A DNA stretch of 64,000 bases from a virus, in IMG/VR virus record IMGVR_UViG_3300001919_000028, positions 1-64,000 of that record; one strand, written 5' to 3'. The position numbers and the translations under genes were made by a program. Every line of letters begins with the position of its first letter. The first letter of the stretch is position 1. Below are positions 3,518-34,092 of this stretch, one piece after another. The notes under the pieces are model-generated. The model was not told where the DNA came from, did not search any database, and worked only from the letters and a program-made list of their open reading frames with translations.

Positions 3518-3821
3518 CATACTCAAAGCGAGGTTCGAGGCCGCGAGGCTGGCACGGTACGATTCCGTGGGGCGGGTTTCCGCCTAACGCTCAGACCCTA
3601 CACCGGCGAGGTAGGTAAGGAGGCATCCAAATCCAGAAGCTGATGTGGGGCGCAGCCGTCTGCGAGAGTGTGCGGAGCATGGGGCCTGGTTTTAGTGGTC
3701 AAGTGGAGGAAATGCTGTCTCTGCGTGGGGTTTTGGGAATGGAACGTGCATCCTTGGAAGCTGGAGTGGATATGACGCCGGGGTCATGGCCGGTGGACAT
3801 TGAGGTAAAACTTCCCCCCAT

Positions 3822-10197: not shown

Positions 10198-10857
10198 ATG
10201 CCTGATTGCCTGGACTCCTATCCGTGGAGGTCACTCAAGGGCTTCGGGACGATGGCCCCGAAAATTTTCCACATCGGAGACTTCAAGAACATCGAGATGA
10301 AAAACGGCGTGATCGTCCCCGTTCATATCATCGGTTTCAACCACGACAAGACGCCGGACGGCAGGCTCTGCCCCATTACCTGGGAGAGCATCAACTGCCT
10401 GAACGACCGCTACTCCATCAATCGGCGTGACACCAACCAGGGTAACTGGGGCGGTTCCGACCTGTTCAGGCAGATGAATGACGATGACGGCTCCATCTTC
10501 CGCCTGTTCCCCGACGATCTCATTGAGGTTGTTGAGCCGGTGGTAAAGCTGACAGCGGAGACCTATGACCGCAGTAACCATATCACGGAGTCCGTCAACA
10601 GGTTCTTTGTGCTGTCTGAAAAAGAAATCTTCGGTCGGTGTATCTTTTCTGCCCCTGGCGAGGGACATTGGTACGAGTGGTACAAGCAGGAGGATGTTCC
10701 GTACTTCAAGCTCCGCAACGGTGAGCTTGAATACAGAGCTACGCGTTCTCCTATTTCCAGCAGCAGCACTAATTTCTGTTGTGTCGGCGGCAGCGGCAAC
10801 GCCGGCTACAGCAGCGCCAGCTACACTATTGGCGTGTCCTTCGGCTTCAGCTTTTAA
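10198..10857 (+). CDS. Hypothetical protein
   Basis: AAGGAGG RBS then ATG. Confidence 0.55.
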   Translation: MPDCLDSYPWRSLKGFGTMAPKIFHIGDFKNIEMKNGVIVPVHIIGFNHDKTPDGRLCPITWESINCLNDRYSINRRDTNQGNWGGSDLFRQMNDDDGSIFRLFPDDLIEVVEPVVKLTAETYDRSNHITESVNRFFVLSEKEIFGRCIFSAPGEGHWYEWYKQEDVPYFKLRNGELEYRATRSPISSSSTNFCCVGGSGNAGYSSASYTIGVSFGFSF

Positions 10858-11936: not shown

Positions 11937-13433
11937 ATGTTCAAAACCACGATATCAGATACTCCATTCACAAGCGATATTGCGAGCTCGTATTTCAGCA
12001 ATATCACCGGCGACCCGATCCTGGGGGATGTGTCGTTTCTCGCAACGCTGAGAGCCCTGCTGGCACCTCGCATTAAGGCGGAGGACACCATCAGGCTCGT
12101 CTACACCACCAGCCGGTACAGCAAGAGCGAGATCAACGGAGCCTCCGTCAACCAGTGTGTGGATGCGATCACCAGCGACATGAGGCTGACCAGGGACGGT
12201 TCTCAGGGGCTGTTCGTCGTCCACAATTTCAGGAGCGACCAGGAGAGCAACCTTGCCAACATGAAGGCGATTGAGGCCGGATTCACCGACCGGTACTCCG
12301 GGTATAGCCGCCTGGAGAAGATGACCGCATTCTTCAAAAAGTCCTTCCCGGTCCTCTGCTATGTCAATCCGGAGCGCCGCAACGTCGTCATGTTCGTGGA
12401 GAGCCTGGACATCAAGAAGATGCACTATCTCCAGATGTCCGTCCTGCCCGCTCTGCCCTGGTACTTCAACCCGGAGGTCGGTATCTCCGAGGACGAGATG
12501 GCGTTGATCCAGTCCCTGCGTGAGACAACGTCAACGAAGTACCTTGAGTGCCTCGAAAAGCTCGCCAAGCAGTACGATTTCAGAACGGCCCGTATCCGTC
12601 AGATGTTGGCGGGGTTCGAGACCAGGTATGAGCAGCGCGAGTGTGAGCAGGTGAAGGGGAATATCCAGAACACCGACAATGAGATTGAGCGGTATAACAA
12701 CCAGATTGGGGTCTTGATCCGCAAGCGGAACGACCTGTGCATCCGGCTCCTCGGTCTGGAGCAGAAGATTGCGGAGGGCTGCGAAGACTCCGACATCATG
12801 GATTACTTCCTCTGCAACTCCAAGCTCTATCTGGAGGAAGTGAACGACTCGGATATGTACTTCTCCGTCAAGGACTATGTGTCCTACTTCGACAAGGACG
12901 CAGTCGAGCGTGTCCTCAACAACAAGACCAGCTACATCTACTGCAACGACCACGGGAACCCGTATACGTCCATCGACCCGGAACGGATGGTAAAACTTAT
13001 CAAGGCTGTGTTCATCGACGAGACCTTGAAGATTAAGTTCTGCGCGGCGTATCGGTTCAGCCTGAACGGCAGCGTGTCCGCGATGGGGGATCACAGCTTC
13101 CCGGCATCTGAGTTCAGCGAGTGTATGCCAAACCCGCACATCAACCAGTACCGCTGTATGGGCGGTTATCAGCAAATCATCAACGATCTCCTGCGGCAGA
13201 ACGACTACATCGGCGCTCTGGAGCAGTGCATCGCGTCTTGCAAGAGTCTGAACTTTTGTGACTCCGCCGTGATGCGCGCCTTCATGAGACAGATGTATGG
13301 CTCCAGCGGTACGAACAGCCGCTGTATCGAACTGCCAGACGGCAGTGTGGTCAAGCCGTTGGCGGCAATCAAGTGGCTTGAGGAACAGGAGGCGGCAGCA
13401 AATGGGACGAAGGAGGAAGAAGCGCATGAGTAA
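11937..13433 (+). CDS. 498-aa Cys-rich protein of the Ubl cassette; candidate E2/E3-like partner or target (unknown)
   Basis: Long ORF overlapping the JAB gene start; multiple Cys/His clusters in the C-terminal half; no recognisable family. Confidence 0.65.
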   Translation: MFKTTISDTPFTSDIASSYFSNITGDPILGDVSFLATLRALLAPRIKAEDTIRLVYTTSRYSKSEINGASVNQCVDAITSDMRLTRDGSQGLFVVHNFRSDQESNLANMKAIEAGFTDRYSGYSRLEKMTAFFKKSFPVLCYVNPERRNVVMFVESLDIKKMHYLQMSVLPALPWYFNPEVGISEDEMALIQSLRETTSTKYLECLEKLAKQYDFRTARIRQMLAGFETRYEQRECEQVKGNIQNTDNEIERYNNQIGVLIRKRNDLCIRLLGLEQKIAEGCEDSDIMDYFLCNSKLYLEEVNDSDMYFSVKDYVSYFDKDAVERVLNNKTSYIYCNDHGNPYTSIDPERMVKLIKAVFIDETLKIKFCAAYRFSLNGSVSAMGDHSFPASEFSECMPNPHINQYRCMGGYQQIINDLLRQNDYIGALEQCIASCKSLNFCDSAVMRAFMRQMYGSSGTNSRCIELPDGSVVKPLAAIKWLEEQEAAANGTKEEEAHE

Positions 13434-14379
13434 GGTTGTCAGAATCACTCCGGAAATGTATGAGGAGTGCAGGCAGGAGTTGGAGAAGTGCTGCCAGAAC
13501 GCGAAGCTCTCCGACGGCAAAATCACATTCACCAAGGTTTTCACCGCTGAGAAGCGGAAGGCGACCCTGTTCTTCACCGATGAAGCGTGGGCGAAGATGA
13601 CCATGCTTCTCCAGGAGTTCGACAAGGAGGTGGCGTGGCATGGCGTCGCCTACCGGCTGGACACCGAGGGGAAGGACGAGTACGTCATCACCGATATCCT
13701 GGTCTATCCCCAGGAGGTCTCCGCCGCGACAGTGGAGATGGACGTCGAGAAGTACGCCAAGTGGCTGATGGAAAACGACGAGGACGAGCGGTTCCAGAAT
13801 ATCCATATGCAGGGTCACAGCCATGTCCGTATGGCACCCAATCCGTCGGCGACCGACATCACACATCAGGAGGAGATCCTCGCCCAGCTCGACGATGATA
13901 ACTTCTACATCTTCATGATCTACAACAAGTCTTTCAGCCGGAACATCAAGATCTACGACATGAAGAAGAACATCCTGTTCGAGGATGGGGATGTCGAGGT
14001 CAAGCTCCAGAGTGCAGTCACTGGCTTTGACGAGTTCATCGCGGATGCCAAGGCAAAGGTCGTGTCCAAGACCTACACCTACAACCAGGGCAGCTACCAG
14101 AGGCCGTCCTATCAGACCCCGACGTATCAGCAGCCGGGGACCTACAAGGGGAACGTGCCGTACAATCCGCTCAGTCCGGCACCTGTCGCCCCTGTCACCC
14201 CGGCTTCCGGGGCGAACCCTCCCAAGCAGGAGAGCAAGAAGAAGGAAAAGGAAAAGAGAAAGGTTCAGATCGGGGCCGGTTGGCACGGTGTGAACGGATA
14301 TGAGCAGGAGTCGCTGTACGGCATGGGCGGCCAGCTCGACGATGACGATGACCCGTATTGGTCCGGATCAGGGAGGTAA
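13426..14379 (+). CDS. JAB/MPN+ (JAMM) metalloprotease (deubiquitinase-like) with Pro/Gln/Tyr-rich C-terminal tail
   Basis: JAMM motif E…HMQGHSHVRMAPNPSATD (HxHx7Sx2D). Confidence 0.8.
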   Translation: MSKVVRITPEMYEECRQELEKCCQNAKLSDGKITFTKVFTAEKRKATLFFTDEAWAKMTMLLQEFDKEVAWHGVAYRLDTEGKDEYVITDILVYPQEVSAATVEMDVEKYAKWLMENDEDERFQNIHMQGHSHVRMAPNPSATDITHQEEILAQLDDDNFYIFMIYNKSFSRNIKIYDMKKNILFEDGDVEVKLQSAVTGFDEFIADAKAKVVSKTYTYNQGSYQRPSYQTPTYQQPGTYKGNVPYNPLSPAPVAPVTPASGANPPKQESKKKEKEKRKVQIGAGWHGVNGYEQESLYGMGGQLDDDDDPYWSGSGR

Positions 14380-14383
14380 CAAG

Positions 14384-15055
14384 ATGGATCTTTCCAAGAG
14401 CTACGAATATTTCCAGCCTGAGAAAATCGACGCCCGCATCCACATCATCGGGTGCGGGTCCGTGGGGTCCACCGTGGCGGAGAATCTCGCCAGGAGCGGC
14501 GTGTCGAAGATGACGCTATGGGATTTCGATGTGGTGGAACCGAAGAACCTGGCAAACCAGATGTTCCGGCAGAAAGATGTCGGTCAGCGCAAGGTGGATG
14601 CTCTGCTGGATATCCTGACCGAGATCAATCCGGACATCGTCGATGATGTGAAGCTCCAGCCGGATGGCTGGAAAGGCCAGCAGCTCAACGGGTATGTGTT
14701 CCTGTGCGTGGACAACATCGAACTGCGGAAGCAGATCGTGGAGATGCACATGAACAATCCATACGTTAAGGCCATGTTCGACTTCCGCACCCGGCTGGAG
14801 GATGCCCAGCACTACGCGGCAGACTGGTCGAACTACAAGATGAAGAAGGATTTCCTGAACTCCATGAACTTCTCCCATGACGAGGCCAAGGAGGAGACGC
14901 CGGTCTCCGCCTGCAACGTGACCTTGTCCGTCTGCCCCACCGTCCGGGTCATCTGCGCCCTGGGTGTGGCCAACTTTATGAACTTCTGGAACGGGAAGGG
15001 CTTGAAGAAGCTGATTCTGGCCGACTCGTTCAACTTCTCGCTGGACGCCTTTTGA
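14384..15055 (+). CDS. ThiF/MoeB/E1-like adenylyltransferase (Ubl-activating enzyme)
   Basis: Rossmann motif IHIIGCGSVGSTVAENL; downstream Cys cluster C-x6-C-x6-C; E1-family size. Confidence 0.85.
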   Translation: MDLSKSYEYFQPEKIDARIHIIGCGSVGSTVAENLARSGVSKMTLWDFDVVEPKNLANQMFRQKDVGQRKVDALLDILTEINPDIVDDVKLQPDGWKGQQLNGYVFLCVDNIELRKQIVEMHMNNPYVKAMFDFRTRLEDAQHYAADWSNYKMKKDFLNSMNFSHDEAKEETPVSACNVTLSVCPTVRVICALGVANFMNFWNGKGLKKLILADSFNFSLDAF

Positions 15056-15081: not shown

Positions 15082-15390
15082 GTGGCTCGGTTGAGAAGAT
15101 TTAACGTCGGTGATATCGCCACAGTCAGAAGAGATATCGAAGCTGGTAAGTATTACAAAATGGACGACGGCCATGATGATGATGTTGTCACTGCGGACAT
15201 GGCTAAAATGGCCGGAAGACAAATCGAAATCCTTGCGATCAGCAGCGCTGGGACATACATCGCCAGAACAGACAAGCAGAGACGGTACTGGACCGATGAA
15301 ATGTTTGAGTCCTCGGATTTTGAGGAGAGCGACGTCCCAATCGAGTCATTCCTGTTCGGCGATCTTGATCTGAAAGGCGGTGAAGCGTAA
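15082..15390 (+). CDS. Small ubiquitin-like protein candidate with C-terminus …ESFLFGDLDLKGG-EA (diglycine plus 2-residue extension); alternative TTG start at 15091
   Basis: C-terminal match to the ubiquitin …ESTLHLVLRLRGG pattern; located immediately after the E1 gene. Confidence 0.5.
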   Translation: MARLRRFNVGDIATVRRDIEAGKYYKMDDGHDDDVVTADMAKMAGRQIEILAISSAGTYIARTDKQRRYWTDEMFESSDFEESDVPIESFLFGDLDLKGGEA

Positions 15391-16223
15391 TGCAGCCCAC
15401 GGTAAAAAGTCTGCGGCTTGGCAGCAAGCTGCTCTTTGGCAGGTATGGTGTGAAAGCGGACATGGAACCGCAGCCCATCACATGGTTGAAGGCCACGCCA
15501 AACTGTGATTTGGTCTCGGAGAGTGTGGTGGACTTTCTGTGCTTTGACGCAAAGGAACGCTATCCCGTCGAGAACCGGGCGTGGCCGGAGGTAAGGCCGA
15601 ACGACTGTTGGCATCTGTCCAACATCTTCCAGTATCTGAACAGCGAGGAGGACAACTGGTTCCACAAGCTGCACGAGCAGGATGTGGCACCGGCCAGAGG
15701 GTACTCCGATGTGGATTCCCCCGAAGCTGTCTACTCGGCACACTACGGGTTCCTGAGATACTTCGAGGACTTTGAGCTTGCCAATCTGCTGGATCAGACA
15801 TACATAATCAATGATTTGGAGTGTACCTCCAAGATGCGTCTCCTATCCGTCGCTGATGTGTCCGGAGATACGAGGTTCAACGTGTTCCGCAAGCGTGGTA
15901 TCCGTGCCCATCCGACAGTAGATATCCAGCGGTATAAGTATAACGCTCCAGGGTCTTCGACGGAACAGTTCATGGGTTTCTTCCTGATGGACAAGCCGAA
16001 CAGGGCGGGTTGGAGCAGTTATGTGCAGGCGGTTGGCCGTAACGGAAGCGTCTATGCCGAGTATGCCAGCCACGGGCTTGGTATCCGTCCGACTTGCCGG
16101 ATAAAGCCGGACACCAAGGTTGAGGAAGTAGAGGACGGCGTCTACACTGTCGTTCCTTACGATGTTCATCCGATTCCGGTTGGAACGGATGAAGAAATCA
16201 TGATGCTCTTAGGTCTGGTGTGA
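15390..16223 (+). CDS. Hypothetical protein (277 aa)
   Basis: TAATG stop/start overlap with the upstream gene. Confidence 0.55.
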   Translation: MQPTVKSLRLGSKLLFGRYGVKADMEPQPITWLKATPNCDLVSESVVDFLCFDAKERYPVENRAWPEVRPNDCWHLSNIFQYLNSEEDNWFHKLHEQDVAPARGYSDVDSPEAVYSAHYGFLRYFEDFELANLLDQTYIINDLECTSKMRLLSVADVSGDTRFNVFRKRGIRAHPTVDIQRYKYNAPGSSTEQFMGFFLMDKPNRAGWSSYVQAVGRNGSVYAEYASHGLGIRPTCRIKPDTKVEEVEDGVYTVVPYDVHPIPVGTDEEIMMLLGLV

Positions 16224-16571
16224 CCTCAACAGCACCATCTGTAACGCATTTACCTCGCAAGAGGAGCTTCACGCCGATGGTTGAAGTAACAAATAGCTGA
16301 GAAGAAAAAGAATGCCCCGAGATGCCTGGCGAAGGTGGACCGAGTCTGGGAACGAGGCCATCGCATCCACGAAGGTTAAGAACTCGCACGGGAGTAGAGA
16401 GAAATCCCCGAATCCCAAGGATTTCGTCTCCTGCACCTGGTGAGAGAACCGGCAGTCCGAAGACTCACAGAGCTGCAATGCGCTGCGGGCGCCTTCATCG
16501 CAGATCACGAGCCCAGTCGTCTTACTTATGTAGGTTACAGATATCTTATAATGAAAAGAGGTGCGGAGATA
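16224..16571 (+). ncRNA. Structured noncoding region upstream of the RT (candidate retron msr/msd or RT-associated ncRNA)
   Basis: 348 bp without a credible ORF; several hairpins (e.g. AAATCC…GGATTT, CTGCG…CGCAG). Confidence 0.35.
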
Positions 16572-17708
16572 ATGGTTTATATGACTGTCATGCAGTCTCC
16601 GATGTACCATCAGATGACGCTGGACGAGTTCCTGTTCAACACCTATAAGGAAAGTCCGGTCGTCAACTACAATGTCGGCAACACCAGGACTTACAAGTTC
16701 GACAATATCAGTCGTAGATTTTTGGACAGCATCGACGTCCCCAGTTTGATTTTGACTCTCCAGGCGTTCAACAACAGCACGGAAGCGCTCCGCCGGGTCA
16801 AGCGGTCGGACCTCTACATCACATTCTATATCCCCAAGAAGAGCGGAGGGCTCCGTAAGATTGACGAGCCGAAGCCGGAATTGATGGATGCGCTTCGCCG
16901 CCTCAAGACGATTTTCGAGCGGGACTTCCACACTCTGTATCACACCAGTGCATTTGCGTACATCCAAGGGCGGTGTACCGTTGATGCGATCAAGCGTCAT
17001 CAGGCCAACGAGAGCAAGTGGTTTGGCAAGTATGACCTCCACAACTTCTTCGGAAGCACGACGCTCGAGTTCGTCATGCAGCAACTCAGCATGATCTTCC
17101 CGTTCAGCGAAGTGGTGAAGCTGGAGTCCGGGCGTGCCGAGCTGGAGAAAGCGCTGGAACTTGCGTTCCTCAACGGCGGTTTGCCGCAGGGAACGCCGTT
17201 CTCTCCGACCATCACCAATGTGATGATGATCCCCGTTGACTACGAGCTGTCACACGGGTTCCGCAACCTCAACAACCAGAGCTTTGTCAACACCAGATAC
17301 GCGGATGACTTCACGATTTCCTCCAAGTATGAGTTCGACCCAAAGGAAATCGAGAAGTTCATCACGGATACGTTGGCTCAGTTCAATGCGCCGTTTACAT
17401 TGAACGAGTCAAAGACGAGATACGGCTCCAGTTCCGGACGCAACTGGAACCTTGGGCTGATGCTCAACAAGGACAACGTGATTACGGTCGGCCACAAGCG
17501 GAAGCGTCAGCTCCAGACGATGCTCCACAATTACATTCTTGACAAAAGGAATGGGATCAGGTGGGATCTGCACGATGTGCAGGTAATGGACGGGAACATC
17601 AACTACTGCCGGATGGTCGAAGAGGAGGCGACAAACAACATCATCAAGCATATCAATGAGAAAATGGGCGTCGATGTTTGCAGAATGATAAGAGAAGACC
17701 TGAGATAA
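16572..17708 (+). CDS. Reverse transcriptase, retron/UG (defence-associated) type
   Basis: RT motifs IPKKSGGLRKI, AF.YIQGR, YDLHNFFGS, LPQGTPFSP, YADD, NLGLMLNKDN…KRKRQLQTMLHN; QG..SP (not DGR-type). Confidence 0.85.
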   Translation: MVYMTVMQSPMYHQMTLDEFLFNTYKESPVVNYNVGNTRTYKFDNISRRFLDSIDVPSLILTLQAFNNSTEALRRVKRSDLYITFYIPKKSGGLRKIDEPKPELMDALRRLKTIFERDFHTLYHTSAFAYIQGRCTVDAIKRHQANESKWFGKYDLHNFFGSTTLEFVMQQLSMIFPFSEVVKLESGRAELEKALELAFLNGGLPQGTPFSPTITNVMMIPVDYELSHGFRNLNNQSFVNTRYADDFTISSKYEFDPKEIEKFITDTLAQFNAPFTLNESKTRYGSSSGRNWNLGLMLNKDNVITVGHKRKRQLQTMLHNYILDKRNGIRWDLHDVQVMDGNINYCRMVEEEATNNIIKHINEKMGVDVCRMIREDLR

Positions 17709-17815
17709 ACAAAAAACACTGTGATGTATAACCGCATTTATTTGTGGTGCTTACCGCCGATGGCGTAAGTGACGAATAGCCGAGAGAAAGAAGGAGTATC
17801 CCCTGAAGGGAGGAG

Positions 17816-17854
17816 ATGACGCGTGGCAGCAGGCATCGCCGACTGCCGCGTCAT
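17816..17854. repeat. 12-bp inverted repeat with 1-nt bulge (ATGACGCGtGGCAG…CTGCCGCGTCAT) in the 400-bp noncoding region downstream of the RT
   Basis: Read directly. Confidence 0.5.
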
Positions 17855-18113
17855 CCGACCCTCAACTGGCGAGACGACCCACCAGTTCAGACTGGCCAGG
17901 CGACCGAAGACACTCCGCATCTGGGTTCATCCCAAATCCTCTCGACAGATTCACAGAATCTGACCTGACAAATTTCCTTTTACAGGACATCAGATGACCA
18001 GAAACCATACCAGAGGAAGCGCGCACCGCCTCTTCGGATCTGTTTGATAGCTCCAGAAGGCACGCTATATTACTGTCAGATCACAGTGTACCCCCGTTCA
18101 AAGGAGTTTTGCC

Positions 18114-18788
18114 ATGATTTATTTGACTGGCGACACCCATGCCAATCTCGATATTGGCAAGTTAAACACGAAGAATTTTCCACAGCAGAAGGATTTGACC
18201 AAGAACGACTTCCTCATTATCTGCGGAGATTTCGGCCTTGTATGGGACGGCTCCGCGAGAGAAATCTACTGGCAGGACTGGCTGTCATCCAGAAATTACA
18301 CCACCCTGTTCGTAGATGGGAACCACGAAAACTTTGACATCCTCCGCAGAATGCCGCTGAGTGAGAAGTTCGGAGGACAGGTCAGGGAAATCGCGTCGGA
18401 CATCTACCACCTGGAGAGAGGTCAGGTTCTCACCATCGACGGGAAGAAAATATTTGTCATGGGCGGCGCTCGCTCCGTGGATAAGGACGGCCGCATCGAG
18501 CACCTCTCATGGTGGAAAGAAGAAATGCCGGCGATATGGGAGATGGACCGGGCGCTCAGCGCACTGGAGGCCGTCAACTGGGAGGTTGACTATGTGGTTA
18601 CGCACTGCGCCCCACGAAGCGTCCAGCAGATGATATCTCCCTGGTATGAGAACGACCCGATGGTCAGCTTTCTGGAGAGAGTCCGCCAGGACTTGAAGTT
18701 CAAGCGGTGGTACTTCGGCCATTACCACACAGACCGGCAGGTCAACGAACAGTTTATCGCATTATACAATAAGGTAGTCCCTGCGTAG
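18114..18788 (+). CDS. Calcineurin-like metallophosphoesterase
   Basis: GDTHAN…ICGDFG…DGNHEN…GHYH motifs. Confidence 0.8.
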   Translation: MIYLTGDTHANLDIGKLNTKNFPQQKDLTKNDFLIICGDFGLVWDGSAREIYWQDWLSSRNYTTLFVDGNHENFDILRRMPLSEKFGGQVREIASDIYHLERGQVLTIDGKKIFVMGGARSVDKDGRIEHLSWWKEEMPAIWEMDRALSALEAVNWEVDYVVTHCAPRSVQQMISPWYENDPMVSFLERVRQDLKFKRWYFGHYHTDRQVNEQFIALYNKVVPA

Positions 18789-19102: not shown

Positions 19103-19170
19103 GCTCTCATAGCTCAAATGGCAGAGCTGGCCTGTAAGGCTGAGTGCAGGTTCAAATCCTGCTGAGAGCG
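19103..19170 (+). ncRNA. Atypical or truncated tRNA-like element (68 nt): good acceptor, D and T arms but shortened anticodon region, no CCA
   Basis: GCTCTCA/TGAGAGC acceptor, T-loop GGTTCAAATCC; anticodon arm does not fold canonically. Confidence 0.35.
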
Positions 19171-19298
19171 AATGCCGGGGGACGCCCCGTCTGTGAAAGC
19201 CGGACGGATCAAAACCGAAAGAGCCGCTCAATTTTGTGAGTGAGGCACAAGCGTGGGTAAGCGGCAATTTGTGAGGCCCACGACCTCACACTTTATTT

Positions 19299-20350: not shown

Positions 20351-20500
20351 CGATCCAAAAAGACGCGTCGCTTTGTGCATATGCCGCCCTGACAATCGAC
20401 GGGCGGCATACGGACAACGTCTGGGGAGCCGGGAATGGGGGAGCGGGAGGAGCCCGCTCCCCGCCCGGTGTTTTATTATGAAGAAACAGGGGTAAGGAAA

Positions 20501-21049
20501 ATGAAAGTTCTCGTTGTTGTCGATATGCAAAAAGATTTCGTCGATGGTTCGCTCGGAACGAAAGAGGCCGTCGCCATCGTCCCGAATGTCGTGGATAAGA
20601 TCCTCAAGTTTGACGGCGACGTCATCGCCGTGACCCAGGACACCCACCACGACAACTACCTGGAGACCCAGGAGGGCAAGAAGCTCCCGGTGAAGCACTG
20701 CATCAAAGGTTCCGAGGGGTGGATGCTGGCACCGGCTATCACCGCTGCACTCTCAACGCAGACCGGTATGGTGGTCATGGACTTCTTCCATAAGGAGACC
20801 TTCGGTTCTGTTGAGATGTGCGAGTGGCTGTCTGAACTCAATGCCGAGGAGGAGAGCATCGACGAAATCGAAGTGGTCGGCCTGTGTACTGACATCTGTG
20901 TGGTATCCAACGTGCTGATGATGAAGGCATATATGCCGGAAGTTCCCATCACAGTGGACGCCTCCTGCTGTGCCGGTGTCACGCCGGAGAGCCATGCTGC
21001 GGCCATCACGACCATGAAAGCCTGCCAGATCAATGTGATTGGCGAGTAA
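20501..21049 (+). CDS. Isochorismatase-family cysteine hydrolase, nicotinamidase (PncA)-like
   Basis: VVDMQKDF…, catalytic Cys in GLCTDICV; RBS AAGGAAA. Confidence 0.75.
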   Translation: MKVLVVVDMQKDFVDGSLGTKEAVAIVPNVVDKILKFDGDVIAVTQDTHHDNYLETQEGKKLPVKHCIKGSEGWMLAPAITAALSTQTGMVVMDFFHKETFGSVEMCEWLSELNAEEESIDEIEVVGLCTDICVVSNVLMMKAYMPEVPITVDASCCAGVTPESHAAAITTMKACQINVIGE

Positions 21050-21338: not shown

Positions 21339-22130
21339 ATGATAGAAATCAACAAGAACAAGGTGGAGCTGAACCGGTTCCCGGACGGGACACTGGCTCT
21401 GCGGTACTACGACAACTCTCCCGTGCAGAATATCCGGTGGCGCTACGACGGGGACGAGGAGTGCATGGCCATCTGGTATCTCGTCCACCATATCCGTGAG
21501 TCGTATCCGCTGACGGAGATCAACCTCTATCTTCCATACCTCCCCAACGCGAGGATGGACCGGGTGAAGAACGAGGACGAGGTGTTCACGCTCAAGTGGT
21601 TCGCCAAGTTCATCAACGGTCTTCGCTTCGACCGGGTGTGGGTGACAGATCCGCACTCCAATGTCGGTATCGCCCTTCTGGATAGAGTATCGCAGGAGGA
21701 CATCAAGCCGAACGTCTACGGCTGGGTGCTCAATGATATTGAACGCGGAACGCATGATACCGTCCTATGTTTCCCCGACGAGGGAGCGTCCAAGAAGTAC
21801 GCCAGCATGTTCCCCGATTATCCCCATGTGTTCGGCATCAAGCACAGGGATTGGCGGACCGGCAAGATCCTCGGCCTGTCCATCACCAATGAAGAGCTGG
21901 TGAGCGGCCATCAGGTTCTGATCGTGGACGACATCTGCTCTCGCGGCGGGACGTTCATGCACACTGCCGCCGCACTGAAAGAGGCCGGCGCAACCAAGGT
22001 CTACCTGTATGTCACCCACTGTGAGAACAACATCTTCAACGGCGACGTGCTGTCCTCCGACCTCATTGAGCACGTCTACACGACGGACAGCATTTTCCGG
22101 GGCAGCCACCCGAAAATCACGGTTTTATAA
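21339..22130 (+). CDS. Ribose-phosphate pyrophosphokinase (PRPP synthetase)-like protein; possible ADPR-PP synthetase of a phage NAD+ reconstitution pathway
   Basis: Type I PRTase PRPP-binding motif VLIVDDICSRGGTF; two-domain Prs-like length; adjacent to the NAMPT-family gene. Confidence 0.7.
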   Translation: MIEINKNKVELNRFPDGTLALRYYDNSPVQNIRWRYDGDEECMAIWYLVHHIRESYPLTEINLYLPYLPNARMDRVKNEDEVFTLKWFAKFINGLRFDRVWVTDPHSNVGIALLDRVSQEDIKPNVYGWVLNDIERGTHDTVLCFPDEGASKKYASMFPDYPHVFGIKHRDWRTGKILGLSITNEELVSGHQVLIVDDICSRGGTFMHTAAALKEAGATKVYLYVTHCENNIFNGDVLSSDLIEHVYTTDSIFRGSHPKITVL

Positions 22131-22187
22131 ACCAATCATTTCCCATAACCAGCGGAAATGATATATTTCAAAAAGGAGTGTATAGCG

Positions 22188-23711
22188 ATGATTTCCTACA
22201 ATCCTCTGCTGTGCCTTGACTTCTATAAGACAGCCCACGTGGCGCAGTATCCGGCAGGTCTCACCAAGATGGTGTCCTACTACACGCCCCGCATGAGCCG
22301 TCTTGGCGATACGGATAAGGTCACACTGTTCGGGCTCCAGGCTTTCATTCAGGACTACCTGGTTGACGCCTTCAATCAGGACTTCTTCAACCGGGACATT
22401 GAGGAAGTGGTTGCGGAGTATAAGCGAGTTCTCAACGCCACCATCGGAACCGACGGTGTTGGCGAGGCCCGTGTCCGTGAGCTCCACGATCTCGGCTTTC
22501 TGCCTCTGGAGATCCGGGCTGTCCCGGAGGGCGTGAGAACCGACATCAAGGTTCCGCAAATCGAGATCACCAACACCCATCCCGACTTCGTGTGGTTGGT
22601 CAACACCATCGAGACCATGCTCTCCGCCACCATGTGGCACACCCAGGTCTCGGCGGAGGTCGGCTACCGCTATCGCCAGATCGTCGAGGAGTTTGCAGAG
22701 CGCACCTGTGATGACAGCGTGGTTCGCTCCAGGCTTCTCGGCGATTTCTCTATGCGCGGGCAGGAGAGTGTGGAGAGCGCCACCAAGAGTTCCGCCGCCT
22801 TCCTCCTGAGCTTCCTGAACACCGCCACCGTTCCGGCTATCCTATGGCTGGAGGAGCACTATGACTGCGACATCGGCGTGAATCAGGTCGGGTACGGCGC
22901 ACTCTCCACCGAGCACAGTGTGATGTGCTCCAACTACGCCGTGGACGGCGACGAGGAGACGCAGATCCGCCGCTTGCTCACCGAGATCTATCCCCATCAG
23001 AGTTTCTCCATGGTCAGCGACAGCTATGACTACTGGAACTTGGTCAACGACATCCTCCCCAAGTTGAAGGACGAGATCCTTGCCCACGACGGCTGCCTCT
23101 CCGTTCGCGGTGACAGCGGCGACCCCGTGGAAATCGTGACGAAGACCGTGTTCGCCCTCTGGGACATCTTCGGCGGGACCGTGAACAGCAAGGGCTTCAA
23201 AGTCCTTGACCCCCATGTCAAGGCGCTCTATGGGGACAGCATCACGCCGCAGCGGTGCCGTGAGGTCTACACCATTCTGGAGCAGAACGGGTTCGCCATC
23301 AACAACGTGTCCCTCGGCGTCGGTTCCTTCTCCATGCAGTGTCTGGAAACGCTGGAGCTGGACGGGTATCAGTTGTCACACCCGTGCGCTCCACGCCCCA
23401 TGACATACAAGCCCTACACCCGTGACACCTTCGGCATCGCCGTCAAGGCCACCTATGCCGAGGACAAGGACGGCAATCCCATCATGATTTTCAAGAACCC
23501 AAAGACAGACAACGGGCACTTCAAGAAGTCCCAGCGCGGCTGCTGCCGTGTGTTCAAGACCAAGTACGGTTACGACTATGTGGACGGTCTGACCTGGAAA
23601 CAGGCCAACACTGGTGAGAACGAGCTCTACCCGGTGTTCGTGAACGGCCTCTTCATCAAGCGGTACACTCTGGACGAGGTGCGGCAGAACCTGCACAACG
23701 GAAAGTTCTGA
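22188..23711 (+). CDS. Nicotinamide phosphoribosyltransferase family protein (NadV/NAMPT-like; could be Namat of NARP1)
   Basis: N-terminal YNPLLCLDFYKTAHV signature and about 500 aa length typical of NAMPT/NadV; AAGGAG RBS. Confidence 0.75.
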   Translation: MISYNPLLCLDFYKTAHVAQYPAGLTKMVSYYTPRMSRLGDTDKVTLFGLQAFIQDYLVDAFNQDFFNRDIEEVVAEYKRVLNATIGTDGVGEARVRELHDLGFLPLEIRAVPEGVRTDIKVPQIEITNTHPDFVWLVNTIETMLSATMWHTQVSAEVGYRYRQIVEEFAERTCDDSVVRSRLLGDFSMRGQESVESATKSSAAFLLSFLNTATVPAILWLEEHYDCDIGVNQVGYGALSTEHSVMCSNYAVDGDEETQIRRLLTEIYPHQSFSMVSDSYDYWNLVNDILPKLKDEILAHDGCLSVRGDSGDPVEIVTKTVFALWDIFGGTVNSKGFKVLDPHVKALYGDSITPQRCREVYTILEQNGFAINNVSLGVGSFSMQCLETLELDGYQLSHPCAPRPMTYKPYTRDTFGIAVKATYAEDKDGNPIMIFKNPKTDNGHFKKSQRGCCRVFKTKYGYDYVDGLTWKQANTGENELYPVFVNGLFIKRYTLDEVRQNLHNGKF

Positions 23712-23723
23712 GGAGGGTTTTCT

Positions 23724-24476
23724 ATGCTCTGTGATGTCAAGAGAACGAAGAACGAAATCGTACAGTGGATTCGGAACTACTTTGCCCGCAACGGCCAGAC
23801 GTGTTTTGCCGTTGTCGGTATCTCCGGCGGCAAGGACTCCAGCGTGGTCGCCGCCCTGTGTGTCGAGGCGCTGGGGAGAGATCAGGTCATGGGTGTCCTG
23901 ATGCCCAACGGGGTGCAGGACGATATTGAGTGCAGCTATCAGCTCGTGAAGCACCTCGGTATCCCACACAAGGTGGTCAACATCGCCGAGCCGTTCAACG
24001 CCATGGTCGCCCAGCTCAACGAGGCACTCCCGGTCAGCCGTCAGGCCATCGTAAATCTGCCGGCACGTCTCCGCATGGCCACGCTGTATGCGGTGGCTCA
24101 GTCCCTGCCCTACGGCGGGAGAGTCGCCAACACCTGCAACAGGTCTGAGGACTATGTCGGTTACGCCACCAAGTTTGGCGACGCCGCCGGGGATTTCAGT
24201 CCCTTGCCCCATCTGATGGTGCATGAGGTCAAGCAGCTCGGCTACGAGCTCGGCCTACCGAAGAACCTTATTGAAAAGGTCCCTACCGACGGCCTGTGTG
24301 GTTCCACTGACGAGGATAACCTGGGCTTTACATACGAAACGCTGGACAACTTCATCATGACCGGTAACTGCGAAGACCCTGAGATCCGGGCGAAGATCAT
24401 GGACCTGCACGCCAGGAACCTCCATAAGCTCCGCCCCATGCCGGCGTATGGCGACCCGTACACGACGTATGTATGA
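23724..24476 (+). CDS. nadE: NH3-dependent NAD+ synthetase
   Basis: PP-loop GISGGKDSS, ARLRMATLYAVA, KFGDAAGDFSPL, PTDGL…DE matches NadE. Confidence 0.85.
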   Translation: MLCDVKRTKNEIVQWIRNYFARNGQTCFAVVGISGGKDSSVVAALCVEALGRDQVMGVLMPNGVQDDIECSYQLVKHLGIPHKVVNIAEPFNAMVAQLNEALPVSRQAIVNLPARLRMATLYAVAQSLPYGGRVANTCNRSEDYVGYATKFGDAAGDFSPLPHLMVHEVKQLGYELGLPKNLIEKVPTDGLCGSTDEDNLGFTYETLDNFIMTGNCEDPEIRAKIMDLHARNLHKLRPMPAYGDPYTTYV

Positions 24477-24547
24477 GCCATATCTGGCGCTGGTCATCGT
24501 ACTGATTCTCATTGTCTTAACTCACGACGAGGGTGGTGGAAATAATC

Positions 24548-25825
24548 ATGGAGGATTTGCGTAACGCACTGGATGCTGTTCGGCTTTTGCAAAATACGAC
24601 CGGCTCAAAGGCGAAGCAGGAAGTGCTCGCCAGGAATGCCGGCAACGAGTATTTCCGGCAGCTTATCTACTACGCCTGCCACCCTCGCCTTACTTACAAG
24701 GTATCAGAGACGACGCTGAACCAGCGGTGCAGGCCGAACTCGGCCATCACACAGACCTTCACCACGATTTTCGATATCTGTTCAAGCCTGTCTCACAGAA
24801 AGGCAATCGACGATGTGACACTCTATCAAGTCCTCACCTTTCTGGAGCTGCAGACGCCGGAGGACAGAGTCCTGTATCAGAAGCTGTTGGCGAAAACGCT
24901 CCGGCTTGGAGTCACCGCCAAGAGTATCAACAAAGCGATCCCCGGCCTGATTCCTGAGTGGGAAGTCCAGCAGGCATATCCCATCGAGAAGTACCCGCTG
25001 AAAGATGGCGTGTGGTTTTCCGTTTCGCAGAAGCTGAACGGTGTCCGTGCTACCTTTTATGACGGGAAGATGATTGCCCGGAGCGGAGCGATCATGCCTG
25101 GGCTCGACCACATCGTAAATGAGCTGGAAAAGTACCCGGACTTCGTTTATGACGGGGAAATCACCTTGAAAGACAAAGGTGAGCTGTCCGACAACGAAGC
25201 ATTTCGCATAACCACGGGAATTTTGAACGGTGAAAATGGTGATAAAACGAGGGTTTGCTTCACAATTTTCGATATGCTCCCGGAAATGGACTTCGACCGG
25301 GGTTACAGCACCGCAACCTACCGGACACGCCGCCGGTGGATGGACGAGCTCACCAAGTTCCATCCGGGGAACGAGAATGTGTCCATTCTCCCGTCGCTCT
25401 ACTCCGGCACAGACCAGTCGGTTATCGCCCCGCTGCTGGACCGTATGGTCGCCGAGGATAAAGAGGGGCTCATGGTCAACCTTGATGTTCCTTACCAGTG
25501 CAGGAGGCACAGCGGTATCTTAAAGGTCAAGCGGTTCTACACGGTTGACCTCCCCATCGTCCGGGTCGAACCGGGAACCGGCAGATGCTCCGATGTGATG
25601 GGGTCCATCGTGGTGGACTTCATCGGTGCTGAGGTCGGCGTCGGGTCCGGGTTCACTGACGAGCAGCGCAAGTGGTTCTGGGAGCACCGCGAGGATGTCA
25701 TCGGAACACTTGCCGAAATCAAGTACAAGGAGATCTCGTTCGACAAGGATACGTCCAAACGCAGCTTGCAGTTTCCCGTTTTTGTTGCTCTGCGGACGGA
25801 CAAGGATGATGTGAGTTTCGGATGA
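24548..25825 (+). CDS. ATP-dependent DNA ligase (nucleotidyltransferase motif I variant KLNGVR)
   Basis: Motifs KLNGVR (I), FVYDGEI (III), EGLMVN (IV), LKVKR (V), FPVFVALRTDKD (VI). Confidence 0.7.
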   Translation: MEDLRNALDAVRLLQNTTGSKAKQEVLARNAGNEYFRQLIYYACHPRLTYKVSETTLNQRCRPNSAITQTFTTIFDICSSLSHRKAIDDVTLYQVLTFLELQTPEDRVLYQKLLAKTLRLGVTAKSINKAIPGLIPEWEVQQAYPIEKYPLKDGVWFSVSQKLNGVRATFYDGKMIARSGAIMPGLDHIVNELEKYPDFVYDGEITLKDKGELSDNEAFRITTGILNGENGDKTRVCFTIFDMLPEMDFDRGYSTATYRTRRRWMDELTKFHPGNENVSILPSLYSGTDQSVIAPLLDRMVAEDKEGLMVNLDVPYQCRRHSGILKVKRFYTVDLPIVRVEPGTGRCSDVMGSIVVDFIGAEVGVGSGFTDEQRKWFWEHREDVIGTLAEIKYKEISFDKDTSKRSLQFPVFVALRTDKDDVSFG

Positions 25826-32658: not shown

Positions 32659-33069
32659 AGCGTGGAATGTTGGCTTAGAGGCAGCCATCATCTAAGGAGT
32701 AAATCGTGGCCATCGTAGGAGTTATGCCGGAGGAATCCCGGACGCGACCTACGGGATGCAGATGAACATCCTGCTTTGCAGACAGCCTATGTCAGCGCTG
32801 GACTTAGTGGCTGATATCTGCATTCGGCGACTGGGCGGGAGTGTGACCCGCAAGGCGTATGTGAGTAGCAGAGTGTGGAACTCATGCGCTTGCCATAGGC
32901 AACTCTGCCATGGATTTTTTGGCGTGACAGCACACCATGTTTTTTCGCTGTTTTAATTTAGGATTTTGCCGCAGGCTTTGTCCCTCAATGCCTGCCGGAG
33001 CGTTTGAACTACGCATTATATTGCTTATTCAATGCTTCGCCGCAACATTATAAAACTGGGGTGAGCTAT

Positions 33070-34092
33070 ATGACGATTGAACAAATCAAAGAAATGATTG
33101 CCGGGGAGCAGTATGATTTCCTGTGGACGAACCCGCATCTGTCGTACAAAATCATGTTCCTGACCATGGGAGGCAGCTACGCCTACGGAACCAACGTGGA
33201 GACATCTGATGTGGATGTGCGCGGTTGTACGCTCAACAGCAGAAGCGACATCCTTGGCCTGACGAGTTTCGAGCAGGTGGTCCACACGCAGACGGACACC
33301 GTCATCTACTCATTCAACAAGCTGGTCAGCCTCCTGCTGAACTGCAATCCAAACACGATTGAACTTCTCGGCTGCAAGCCGGAGCATTACTTCTTCGTTT
33401 CTCCCATTGGACAGGAGATGATCGACAACAAGAAGATTTTCCTGTCCCGCCGGGCGGCTGAGTCCTTCGGCGGATATGCCACACAGCAGCTTCGCAGGTT
33501 GAAGAACGCCCTCGCCAGGGACAAGATGTCCCAGGCCGACAACGAGGAACATATCCTCGACGCCATGAAGCGGGCGGTCAAGTCTTTCAGGGATAAGTAC
33601 AGCCACTTCGACAAGGGAAGTGTCAGACTGTACACCGCAGACAGTGAGCGGGACGATCTCGACCGCGAGGTTTTCGCTGACATCCACTTGGACAAGTATC
33701 CGGTGCGTGATTTCAGCATTATGATGAACTCCCTCTCCAACGTGATCGGGAACTACGAGAAGCTGAACCACAGGAACCATAAGAAGGACGACGCCCACCT
33801 CAACAAGCACGCCATGCACCTTATCCGGCTGTACCTGATGTGCCTGGATATTTTGGAGAAGGGCGAAATCAACACCTACCGTGCAAACGACAGGGATTTT
33901 CTGCTCAGTATCCGCCACGGATATTTCCAAAAGGAAGACGGTATGTTCCGGCAGGAGTTCTTCGATATTGTGGAGGACTATGAGAAGCGCCTGCAATATG
34001 CAAAGGCGAACACCTCCCTCCCGGACCAGCCGGACATGAAAGTGGTCGGAGAGTTTGTGGAAAGCGTGAACAGGAGGGCGATTGATGAATAG
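33070..34092 (+). CDS. Pol-beta-superfamily nucleotidyltransferase with GS-x3-G-x5-SDxD motif (cGAS/SMODS/MNT-like)
   Basis: GGSYAYGTNVETSDVDVRG motif near the N-terminus; directly upstream of the CCA-adding enzyme. Confidence 0.65.
   Translation: MTIEQIKEMIAGEQYDFLWTNPHLSYKIMFLTMGGSYAYGTNVETSDVDVRGCTLNSRSDILGLTSFEQVVHTQTDTVIYSFNKLVSLLLNCNPNTIELLGCKPEHYFFVSPIGQEMIDNKKIFLSRRAAESFGGYATQQLRRLKNALARDKMSQADNEEHILDAMKRAVKSFRDKYSHFDKGSVRLYTADSERDDLDREVFADIHLDKYPVRDFSIMMNSLSNVIGNYEKLNHRNHKKDDAHLNKHAMHLIRLYLMCLDILEKGEINTYRANDRDFLLSIRHGYFQKEDGMFRQEFFDIVEDYEKRLQYAKANTSLPDQPDMKVVGEFVESVNRRAIDE

Follow-up and report, generated by a model that had tools for sequence, protein, structure and literature searches.

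Retrons are understood as bacterial anti-phage systems that consist of one reverse transcriptase (RT), one non-coding RNA (ncRNA) and one effector, and the known lengths of their msDNAs, which are branched RNA-DNA molecules, are about 48–163 nt. The msr part of a retron ncRNA carries one to three hairpins. The retron RTs carry the motifs NAxxH in region X and VTG in region Y, of which the H and the G are the most conserved residues, and a single long msd stem-loop is typical of the ncRNA (Mestre et al. 2020, PMC7736814). Besides the classic msr-msd-ret operon, stand-alone (msr-msd)-RT cassettes of RT clades 2 and 11 have been described as bacterial, single-ncRNA elements with a retron RT and no dedicated effector gene (Mestre et al. 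2020). Retrons are common in prophages (review PMC8867640). Ec67, Ec73 and Ec86 are borne by P2/186/P4-like prophages, that is by small temperate coliphages, where each is a one-ncRNA host defence cargo with a fused or adjacent effector. In the type VI system Retron-Vpa2, reverse transcription of a hybrid RNA frees a sequestered ribosome-binding site, and detectable msDNA is not constitutive (10.1101/2025.10.22.683967). DRT2 and DRT9 also combine an RT with a dedicated structured ncRNA and a product that is independent of target sequence.

The locus analysed here lies in a window of 64,000 nucleotides, the whole stretch of viral DNA that was available, and all features are given on the plus strand unless stated otherwise. 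Its RT gene occupies 16572–17708 (378 aa; ATG at 16572, stop at 17708) and is preceded by a GAGGTG ribosome-binding site 8 nt upstream of the ATG; the in-frame GTG at position 16440 is excluded as the RT start, because the homologues begin with the same M(V/Y)Y(I/M)TVMQ as the protein read from ATG 16572. The translation has an N-terminal extension of ~75 aa and contains the motifs that the original prediction named, DLHNFFGS, LPQGTPFSP and RYADDF (FFxS, QGxxxSP and YADD), with a Pfam RVT_1 match at 1.5e-16. In searches against retron, UG and DRT model sets the retron models scored best. PADLOC returned RT_II-A (3.6e-44) ahead of RT_I-A (5.6e-37), the best 25 matches listed being retron RT models throughout with no DRT model among them, and the leading NCBIfam model was retron_St85_RT at 162.6 bits, under its curated cut-off of 235. 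The closest PDB sequences were the Ec83 and Ec78 RTs, and the top 13 Foldseek matches of an AlphaFold2 model (pLDDT 67) were retron RTs; at profile, sequence and fold level the protein is most similar to the RTs of Ec86/Eco1 (type II-A) and of Ec78/Eco7 and Ec83 (type I-A). In the alignment with the Ec83 RT, NAKIH corresponds to AIKRH in region X and VTG to NLG in region Y, with the H and the G alone kept, so that the VTG-like C-terminal region described earlier was only loosely right. By these profile, sequence and fold matches, the RT belongs to the retron or retron-like clade, which agrees with the prediction of a retron-type RT in a phage.

The RT gene is flanked by two regions, 16224–16571 and 17709–18113, which had been thought to lack credible ORFs and to encode a templating ncRNA in an unusual arrangement. 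Neither flank was found to hold an ORF with database or comparative support, and public gene callers place no genes in the corresponding flanks of relatives. Two features that had escaped the first reading were observed: a 48-nt direct repeat (16263–16310 and 17746–17793) joins the flanks and makes them mutually homologous, and long-range perfect inverted repeats close each of them (16237–16245 with 16534–16542, and 17716–17725 with 18080–18089). Judged by their RNA architecture and covariation, the flanks are two predicted paralogous retron-type msr-msd RNA genes, and the idea of templating ncRNAs in an unusual arrangement is borne out by the closing a1/a2 stems, the G after a1, the msr hairpins and the covariation seen in relatives.

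The unit upstream of the RT, unit 1 (16237–16542; 306 nt; covariance-model match 76.3 bits, E 8e-15), opens with a1 at 16237–16245 (ATCTGTAAC), directly followed by the predicted branching G at 16246, msr hairpin 1 at 16253–16264 (CCTC/GAGG), msr hairpin 2 at 16266–16287 and a conserved single strand with a purine run at 16288–16312. A variable, template-like (msd) region spans 16313–16530, and UAG at 16531–16533 stands directly before a2 (16534–16542; GTTACAGAT), which forms a perfect 9-bp stem with a1. The same order recurs in unit 2, downstream of the RT (17716–18089; 374 nt; covariance-model match 76.8 bits): a1 at 17716–17725 (ACACTGTGAT), the predicted branching G directly after it at 17726, hairpin 1 at 17731–17748 (ACCGCA/TGTGGT), hairpin 2 at 17749–17770, the conserved single strand with its purine run at 17771–17795, the variable region at 17796–18076, CAG at 18077–18079 directly before a2, and a2 at 18080–18089 (ATCACAGTGT), which pairs perfectly with a1 over 10 bp. 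The 5′ modules of the two units are paralogous and differ by compensatory changes, and a covariance model of this module, termed R1, finds two copies only in the 64-kb window, namely units 1 and 2.

Folding of the flanks was significant on one side only, the downstream flank giving a folding energy z of −4.09 (0 of 100 shuffles fold as well) and the upstream flank a z of −1.80, which is not significant. The variable region of unit 2 contains a stable hairpin at 17815–17855, with perfect 9-bp arms (17815–17823/17847–17855) extended by GGCAG/CTGCC to a 14-bp bulged stem; this is the inverted repeat previously given as 12 bp, bulged, at 17816–17854, real as a hairpin and corrected in position. 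An Rfam scan of the flanks returned nothing credible (the best match, gabT on the minus strand, reached 29 bits against a cut-off of 45), the Rfam msr family RF00170 gave a non-credible match outside the flanks at 20.5 bits (E 6), and a scan for promoters and terminators yielded nothing beyond shuffled sequence.

The R1 model was further applied to more than 50 related loci with RT identity down to 40%, all of which belong to a single phage lineage and have a conserved gene order, and 1–4 copies per locus were detected, all on the strand of the RT. Most units border the RT gene immediately, a small number are as far as ~8 kb from it, and one clade has a distal unit 6.5–8 kb away. An exact-pattern scan of IMG/VR for the units gave matches only in contigs carrying this RT. 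Copy number differs among contigs with an identical RT protein, via recombination inside the hairpin-2 loop, and one locus (L024) combines the RT with three units. The layout extends to remote relatives, since a locus with an RT 41% identical (L020) shows the same a1-G-hairpin order and the UAG abutting a2, and another with an RT at 40% (L032) has an R1 match directly upstream of its RT. Recognisable types of the 5′ module are shared between phages even at an RT identity of only about 60%.

Covariation, which the original prediction had named as a check in related phages, was found in the a1/a2 stem and in both hairpins. In 36 of 59 units a1 and a2 form a perfect stem of at least 9 bp whose last pair abuts the G, 17 nt into the model match, and stems average 8.9 bp in the units as compared with 5.4 bp in shuffles. 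Pairing of the inner 8 positions is seen in 33/33 units, a percentage that is partly circular as a2 was located by complementarity search, the circularity being offset by the shuffle control and by the fixed register at the G. All 12 pairs have changed on both sides, with a covariation score of 0.66 as compared with 0.21 in shuffles and at most 0.17 when the partner is slid. The G after a1 shows no variation in the spliced a1/a2 alignment and stands next to the stem in every case; a G is also the base directly before a2 in ~90% of units, where (U)AG is conserved. Hairpin 1 has a stem of at least 5 bp in 35/40 units with 32 distinct arm sequences, and shows no greater likeness within a locus than between loci. 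Hairpin 2 has compensatory changes in 7 of its 9 pairs, its loop differs between lineages (CGCCGATGG as against GCGTTTCGC in L014), and its similarity is higher within a locus than between loci (0.80 vs 0.73, p = 7e-4), as is expected of an RT-recognition element.

The units therefore resemble those of canonical retrons in that an a1/a2 duplex closes the ncRNA, a G stands right after a1 and msr hairpins precede the template, and, as in the classic msr-msd-ret operon (Mestre 2020, PMC7736814), the RT start codon follows shortly after the end of the upstream unit. In contrast to canonical retrons, two to four units are found per RT, some of them downstream and in one clade distal, the RT is extended by ~75 aa at its N terminus and its NAxxH and VTG motifs are degenerate, effectors of the ATPase/HNH or NDT kind are absent, and the carrier is a phage of ~115–130 kb and not a bacterial defence island. 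The stand-alone cassettes of RT clades 2 and 11, to which the locus is likened by description, share the retron RT and ncRNA without a dedicated effector gene; the present locus differs from them in its several paralogous units, its carriage by a phage and the constant presence of an E2-like/JAB/E1 block beside it. Carriage by a phage genome is likewise shared with Ec67, Ec73 and Ec86, although the carriers here are large Clostridia phages.

The variable region also departs from the described systems. Its length across units is 130–290 nt (~220 nt in unit 1 and ~280 nt in unit 2), and unlike in canonical retrons no single long stem was seen: minimum-free-energy folds of 19 units gave several short hairpins without a common long stem, and in some units the region is A-rich and poorly structured. 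Among four strains with 99%-identical RT, 2.4% of columns vary in the 5′ module of unit 1, 0% in its a2 and spacer and 9.9% in its variable region; the corresponding values for unit 2 in the same close strains are 1.1% for the 5′ module and 7.3% for the variable region. As fourfold-degenerate RT sites vary at 11.8% among strains with 99%-identical RT, as compared with 7–10% in the variable regions, the template sequence drifts at nearly the neutral rate. Sharing of 7-mers among the variable regions of 32 units was no higher than in shuffles, and a BLAST search for guide-like targets in 50,697 phage genomes, a set almost without gut Clostridia phages, gave chance matches of 26–39 nt only at E up to 10.

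Coding capacity of the variable region was considered on either strand. The p-values of the longest open frames were only mildly skewed, no frame standing out against shuffles, and stop trinucleotides were modestly depleted on both strands (219 vs 287 expected, and 260 vs 303). ORFs of 43 aa and 50 aa inside the units are intact in the four close strains, with substitutions that are almost all non-synonymous by eye, and in the unit-2 ORF 8 of 8 substitutions among close strains, again counted by eye, change the amino acid. A de novo gene in the manner of DRT2, or a small toxin, was rejected on this lack of protein-level constraint in the internal ORFs.

Taken together, the locus can be read as a phage-borne retron in which one RT would serve several template RNAs and make several different msDNAs, a reading to which we assign a probability of roughly 0.7. 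What was observed is the class of the RT, the architecture and covariation of the RNA, and the restriction of the units to contigs that carry this RT; from these we infer reverse transcription, a branch and the length of the product along the following lines. The locus is probably transcribed as a single RNA, in which the a1 and a2 ends of each unit would pair, with the invariant G then placed at the base of the paired stretch. The RT (16572–17708) would recognise both msr hairpins of each unit and prime DNA synthesis from the 2′-OH of the G after a1. Synthesis may begin on the conserved (U)AG directly 5′ of a2 and then copy the long variable region, whereby the window phage would produce two different branched msDNAs from templates of about 220 and 280 nt, and its relatives up to four.

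An extremely improbable alternative is that the system is no retron at all and that a diversity-generating retroelement (DGR), a degenerate group II intron or a DRT/UG-type RT is flanked by unrelated structured RNA. The score of the RT does lie under the curated retron threshold, and both of its retron signature motifs are kept in degenerate form only, but the stem of a1 and a2, the G and the pair of hairpins make up a retron-specific architecture that covaries. For a DGR, both template regions are single-copy in the 64-kb window, where the best matches of 12–13 nt are at chance level, so that a TR/VR pair is missing there; for a group II intron, no Rfam intron family appears at gathering or E-value thresholds, the maturase model TIGR04416 reaches 73.8 bits against a cut-off of 300, and the flanking units measure 306 and 374 nt. 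The earlier dismissal of both classes thus stands. The UG/DRT option that the original prediction had kept beside the retron falls away, with Drt2 at 32.4 bits (cut-off 390) and Drt3a at 22.7 bits (cut-off 200); unlike in DRT2 and DRT9, the RT is of another clade, the geometry is that of the retron a1/a2 and G, and no sign of a rolling-circle junction was seen. It is also very unlikely that the units act as leaders or regulatory RNAs and govern translation of whichever gene follows each a2, in the way of the type VI hybrid RNA. A long structured transcript that joins an RT template to downstream coding or regulatory sequence would indeed be common to this locus and Retron-Vpa2, and every terminal unit ends 20–35 nt before the next start codon with a ribosome-binding site in between. 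The GAGGTG of the RT can pair with GCACC just 5′ of a1 in the window, with a compensatory change in the related locus L001, and 17966–17980 is complementary (15 nt, 80%) to the ribosome-binding site of the downstream metallophosphoesterase gene. However, predicted pairing of ribosome-binding site and template beats shuffles in only 2/15 units, the GCACC/GGTGC pairing is lineage-specific and not seen in other lineages, the small ORFs within units are unconstrained and the stop-codon depletion is weak on both strands. Unlike in Retron-Vpa2, there is no conserved small toxin ORF, no HTH gene and no general sequestration of ribosome-binding sites.

The remaining alternatives concern the neighbouring genes. 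The original prediction had proposed as possible effectors a 277-aa protein (15390–16223; DUF6273 at E 0.004, below the Pfam cut-off) and a metallophosphoesterase (18114–18788; Pfam Metallophos 1.7e-12) whose start lies 24 nt beyond the a2 repeat of unit 2. A classical tripartite defence retron on a temperate phage, with one of these proteins as a toxic effector checked by msDNA, is unlikely. It would accord with the position of both genes, which abut ncRNA units, with a weak PADLOC match of the metallophosphoesterase to PDC-S10 (2.7e-8) and its place directly behind the array of units, seen in the window, L001 and the P0103 lineage, which is very abundant, and with carrying contigs of 219–687 kb and a tyrosine-recombinase-like protein at 52703–53656 of the window, both compatible with a prophage or plasmid state. 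Yet the metallophosphoesterase is present in 8/36 RT-anchored and 10/28 ThiF-anchored loci, its association being limited to a single subclade, and the 277-aa protein occurs in 13/36 and 15/28, respectively, with 27–48% identity outside the closest strains. RT and units persist without either gene, and neither protein is in a known retron effector family, no member of which lies adjacent to the RT. The two genes are variable and not conserved partners, and the proposal of either as effector was rejected. The conserved neighbour is instead an upstream block at 11937–15055, tied to the retron by adjacency, which encodes c1 (498 aa; 11937–13433; weak RWD/E2-like fold match), a JAB-like protein (about 13411–14379) and a ThiF/E1-like protein (14300–15055), and a ThiF/E1 gene lies upstream of the RT in 35/36 RT-anchored loci. 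Enzymes of E1, E2 and JAB type are used by CBASS and Bil systems, and a new retron type in which RT and msDNA sense or regulate and the c1, JAB and ThiF/E1 enzymes execute may be considered, albeit as a rather unlikely case. All loci come from one phage family, in which adjacency may be inherited gene order, and L024 has the RT and three units with no ThiF within 4 kb of the RT. Further, no Ubl substrate was identified, the fold matches of c1 are weak and its Foldseek search found nothing, and a full-text literature search gave no paper that links retrons with E1 or JAB.

As for the role of the msDNAs made by such a multi-template phage retron, any single reading must be regarded as doubtful. 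The near-neutral drift of the templates and the variable copy number of the units suggest that the msDNA acts independently of its sequence; therefore a sequence-independent action, in phage–host or phage–phage conflict, is probable. Abundant msDNA could act as a decoy that draws off host sensors or nucleases, or it could serve as the sensing part of a system that involves the E2-like/JAB/E1 block, which is always adjacent. In its full form, the account which we hold tentatively, with the odds somewhat against it, is that the retron is a stable module, always beside E2-like/JAB/E1, in an abundant family of large phages of gut Clostridia, with one RT and 2–4 interchangeable, fast-diverging templates. 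Its msDNA would then work on the phage side, either as a decoy or sponge that blunts host immunity irrespective of sequence or as the sensing arm of a new Ubl-conjugation-linked retron type, and not as part of a host abortive-infection toxin–antitoxin system.

The carrier is a ~115–130 kb phage of gut Clostridia, and the retron lies among its tRNA, NAD-salvage and RNA-repair genes, which are typical of counter-defence. No nucleotide match was found among deposited phage genomes, and by protein the closest among them is the unannotated human-faecal contig MT835544 only, at 40% identity. The carrier lineage is highly abundant in the gut, one RT sequence being indexed in 2402 blocks of the assembly collection, and the retron looks like a stable feature of the whole family of large Clostridia phages.

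Overall, we could not find a description of a multi-template arrangement that flanks one RT, and the full-text literature search gave no paper on retrons with multiple ncRNAs or on retrons of lytic or large phages; the constant pairing of E1/JAB/E2-like genes with a retron is equally unmentioned in the literature so found. An RT beside a family of distinct templates constitutes a natural experiment on how retron RTs recognise RNA, and several templates per RT offer a natural precedent for multiplexed retron editors. If the templates of 130–290 nt are fully copied, the resulting msDNAs would be longer than any known to us. The arrangement, as far as it can be read from the genomes, suggests that phages themselves make retron DNA, and with a phage carrier and a gene setting of the counter-defence type, the offensive use of retron DNA by phages becomes a testable question.

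The reverse transcriptase (RT) at 16572-17708 (+ strand, 378 aa) carries the motif set claimed in the original prediction, DLHNFFGS, LPQGTPFSP and RYADDF being present in the translation. The ATG is preceded at 8 nt by a GAGGTG ribosome-binding site, and since the homologues begin at the same MVY.TVMQ, the start was placed at 16572 and not at the in-frame GTG at 16440. Pfam returned the generic RVT_1 model only, while 25 of 25 among the PADLOC matches listed were retron RT models (RT_II-A, 3.6e-44; RT_I-A, 5.6e-37). The top NCBIfam match was the retron St85 family with 162.6 bits, which is below the curated cut-off of 235, and the runners-up were far behind (group II maturase, 73.8; Drt2, 32.4; Drt3a, 22.7 bits). 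Ec83 and Ec78 RTs were the nearest solved relatives by sequence, and the top 13 Foldseek matches of a moderately confident AlphaFold2 model (pLDDT 67) are retron RTs. At its N-terminus the RT is extended by about 75 aa, which were poorly modelled. Two signature motifs of retron RTs, NAxxH and VTG, were defined by Mestre et al. 2020 (PMC7736814); they read AIKRH and NLG here, with just the most conserved residue of each kept. Because retron matches at profile, sequence and fold level are combined with degenerate signature motifs, the RT is placed as a divergent member of the retron clade. Of the "retron/UG-type" designation, the retron part was upheld and the UG/DRT part was not, the Drt2 and Drt3a scores also setting aside a DRT/UG system. 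In four related loci (L017, L018, L019 and L028) the RT bears an in-frame insert of about 77 aa after the PKKSGG motif, between motifs 0 and 1; these RTs are 456 aa long and otherwise 63% identical across the aligned 284-aa core.

Both flanks of the RT are non-coding as proposed, with no supported ORFs, and in relatives no gene is called there in public annotations. The inverted repeat predicted at 17816-17854 exists, though at 17815-17855, and the expected structure was borne out against shuffles in the downstream flank (z = -4.09) but not in the upstream flank, which is not outstanding on energy alone (z = -1.80). A 48-nt direct repeat is common to the two flanks, and compensatory hairpin changes separate the two copies (CTTCA/TGAAG vs CTTAC/GTAAG). 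Judged from sequence, the flanks are two paralogous retron ncRNAs, unit 1 (16237-16542; a1 16237-16245, G 16246, a2 16534-16542) and unit 2 (17716-18089; a1 17716-17725, G 17726, a2 18080-18089), both on the + strand. Each unit opens with a1, the 5' arm of a closing duplex, abutted on its 3' side by an invariant G, and continues through a spacer of about 5 nt, two msr hairpins, the second with a triloop-like tip, the single-stranded AACAAYUUGA and then a purine run, a variable region of 130-290 nt and a (U)AG that abuts the 5' side of a2, the 3' arm of the duplex. The a1/a2, G and msr-hairpin architecture is the defining layout of retron msr-msd RNAs (Mestre et al. 2020, PMC7736814), unlike which the variable part of the phage units forms no single long stem-loop.

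A covariation search in related phages, which had been suggested as a check, found the a1/a2 stem and both hairpins to covary. A perfect Watson-Crick a1/a2 stem of at least 9 bp, ending exactly at the G, 17 nt into the match of a covariance model of the 5' module (built from 14 copies), was present in 36/59 units, and mean stem length was 8.9 bp as against 5.4 bp with shuffled downstream sequence. When 33 distinct units were aligned in a fixed register, the eight inner pairs were formed in 33/33, a percentage that is partly circular as a2 sites were found by complementarity, and two-sided changes occurred in 12/12 pairs; the covariation score was 0.66, compared with 0.21 in shuffles and at most 0.17 with the partner slid. 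Three observations argue that the stem is real: its register is fixed, a2 directly precedes the next unit or gene, and stems are shorter in shuffles. Hairpin 1 had a stem of at least 5 bp in 35/40 units with 32 different arm sequences, and hairpin 2 showed compensatory changes at 7/9 pairs.

Within the 64-kb window, the covariance model found two copies alone, both beside the RT, at 76 bits each. Each related locus examined with it has between one and four copies, without exception oriented like the RT. Typically a single copy precedes the RT start by about 300 nt, and one to three follow the gene in tandem; no upstream copy was found by the model in one locus, L010. A scan of 2.9 million IMG/VR contigs for exact matches to the module consensus gave matches confined to contigs carrying an RT of this type. 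Among the more distant loci, L032 (RT 40% identical) has a covariance-model match directly 5' of the RT, and in L020 (RT 41% identical) the a1-G-hairpin...UAG|a2 layout is visible, its units being recognisable only by eye. One clade (L040, 10148-10413; also L037, L038, L047 and L039) has a fourth, solitary unit 6.5-8 kb downstream of the RT, with an intact a1-G-hairpins...UAG|a2 layout and directly 5' of another gene.

The 5' modules can be grouped by type, and the same types reappear from locus to locus, with one upstream type and at least two downstream types. Copies of hairpin 2 from one locus tend to resemble each other more than copies from different loci do (0.80 vs 0.73, p = 7e-4, the compared pairs not being independent), and hairpin 1 shows no such tendency. 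This likeness fits, as supportive evidence, hairpin 2 being the element recognised by the cognate RT; gene conversion would give the same pattern. Among four strains with 99%-identical RT, variable columns amounted to 1-2% in the 5' modules, 0% in a2 plus spacer, 7-10% in the variable regions and 11.8% at fourfold-degenerate sites of the RT. As the variable regions come near the fourfold-degenerate sites, template sequence is almost free to drift, with presence and rough length kept; no shared motif was found in the variable regions of the units compared. Copy number is dynamic, since L033 and L036 encode an identical RT protein and carry three versus two units, one having been lost by crossover inside the hairpin-2 loop (L036 11162-11473 vs L033 11162-11760). 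The resulting L036 unit is a chimaera in which the 5' part of the first downstream unit is joined to the rest of the second within that loop (CGCCAAAGGC), and its a1/a2 stem is down to about 6 bp, one G-U pair included.

A retron mechanism is our main reading, at a probability of roughly 0.7. The RT would bind the msr hairpins of each unit, be primed from the invariant G at the base of the a1/a2 duplex, through its 2'-OH, begin synthesis opposite the conserved (U)AG and copy the variable region, so that two distinct branched msDNAs would arise from this phage and up to four from its relatives. A diversity-generating retroelement was rejected, as the original prediction had it, there being no variable-repeat copy of the template regions in the 64-kb window; a group II intron, likewise dismissed beforehand, lacks ribozyme domains (Rfam) and a maturase-level score. 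A de novo gene or small toxin inside the template was discarded because internal ORFs are without protein-level constraint and stop-codon depletion is weak, and a type VI-like translational switch because template/ribosome-binding-site pairing exceeded shuffles in just 2/15 units. Guide-like targeting by the templates gave no matches in phage genomes, a weak test given a collection poor in gut Clostridia phages.

The two proposed effectors are not conserved neighbours: the metallophosphoesterase (18114-18788) occurs in 8/36 RT-anchored and 10/28 ThiF-anchored loci, and the 277-aa protein (15390-16223) in 13/36 and 15/28. The constant upstream neighbours are c1 (498 aa), a JAB-like and a ThiF/E1-like protein. 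A functional link of the retron to this block, as a rival to or extension of the retron reading, draws on ThiF being present in 35/36 RT-anchored loci (in L024 there is none within 4 kb upstream) and on the RT following ThiF in 28/28 ThiF-anchored loci, of which 15 lie on newly sampled contigs. All of these loci belong to a single phage lineage, so that a shared gene order may have been inherited, and we consider the link improbable. The block at 11937-15055, with a weak RWD/E2-like fold in c1, resembles a minimal phage-encoded ubiquitin-like conjugation module, and the c1 family is apparently restricted to the carrier phage group (715 matches, the best 120 of 715 all at 50% identity or more). 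Between the E1-like and 277-aa genes, a 102-aa ORF (15082-15390), confined to the closest strains (3/36 loci), ends in ...DLDLKGGEA, its Gly-Gly two residues before the C-terminus recalling the ubiquitin-like precursors that JAB proteases trim. The 277-aa gene and 10198-10857 have weak, sub-threshold DUF6273 matches (E 4e-3 and 8e-4, respectively) and may be distant paralogues.

The window is part of a large phage, with DNA polymerase, DnaB-type helicase, primase and ligase genes as well as a CCA-adding enzyme and eight or nine tRNAs. A complete run of NAD-salvage genes, comprising an isochorismatase/PncA-like protein (20435-21049), a PRPP-synthetase-like protein (21339-22130), NAMPT (22158-23711) and NAD synthase NadE (23724-24476), is similar to the pathways with which phages reconstitute NAD+ against defences that deplete it. 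An ATP-dependent ligase, a nucleotidyltransferase and the CCA-adding enzyme (24533-25825 and 33004-35422), joined in relatives by RtcB and an RNA ligase (L033 14666-20549), make up an RNA or tRNA repair toolkit beside the tRNA genes. Rfam matches above gathering score, RAGATH-16 (188-259, 85 bits) and RAGATH-36 (3550-3677, 103 bits), lie in the tRNA-rich early window; both are structured orphan RNAs, originally detected close to genes associated with twister and hammerhead ribozymes. A tRNA-like sequence by the Rfam tRNA model (19103-19170, 49 bits), absent from the ARAGORN calls, adjoins a sub-threshold twister-sister match (19161-19240, 17 bits, E 5.5). Related contigs cluster at 114-131 kb, and binning groups them with Oscillospiraceae, Ruminococcus, Acutalibacteraceae and other Clostridia. 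As some RT-carrying contigs are 219-687 kb long and a 317-aa tyrosine-recombinase-like protein is encoded at 52703-53656 (MrpR-type core-binding domain, 6.7e-13), the carrier may have a prophage or plasmid-like state. Phages of this family are highly abundant: a single one of the RT sequences is found in 2402 indexed blocks of the assembly collection; no similar genome was found among deposited phage genomes.

Stand-alone msr-msd-RT cassettes (Mestre et al. 2020, PMC7736814) and prophage-borne retrons (PMC8867640) are already known, and the element is therefore rated a variant of known retrons. A literature search found none with more than one ncRNA per RT, with units downstream of the RT, as stable modules of large phages or beside E1/JAB genes. 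Overall, near-neutral drift of the templates, varying copy number and surroundings rich in counter-defence genes point to a sequence-independent function of the predicted msDNAs in conflict, each particular role being tentative at best: they could serve as decoy or sponge, or as a sensor working with the E1/JAB/E2-like block.
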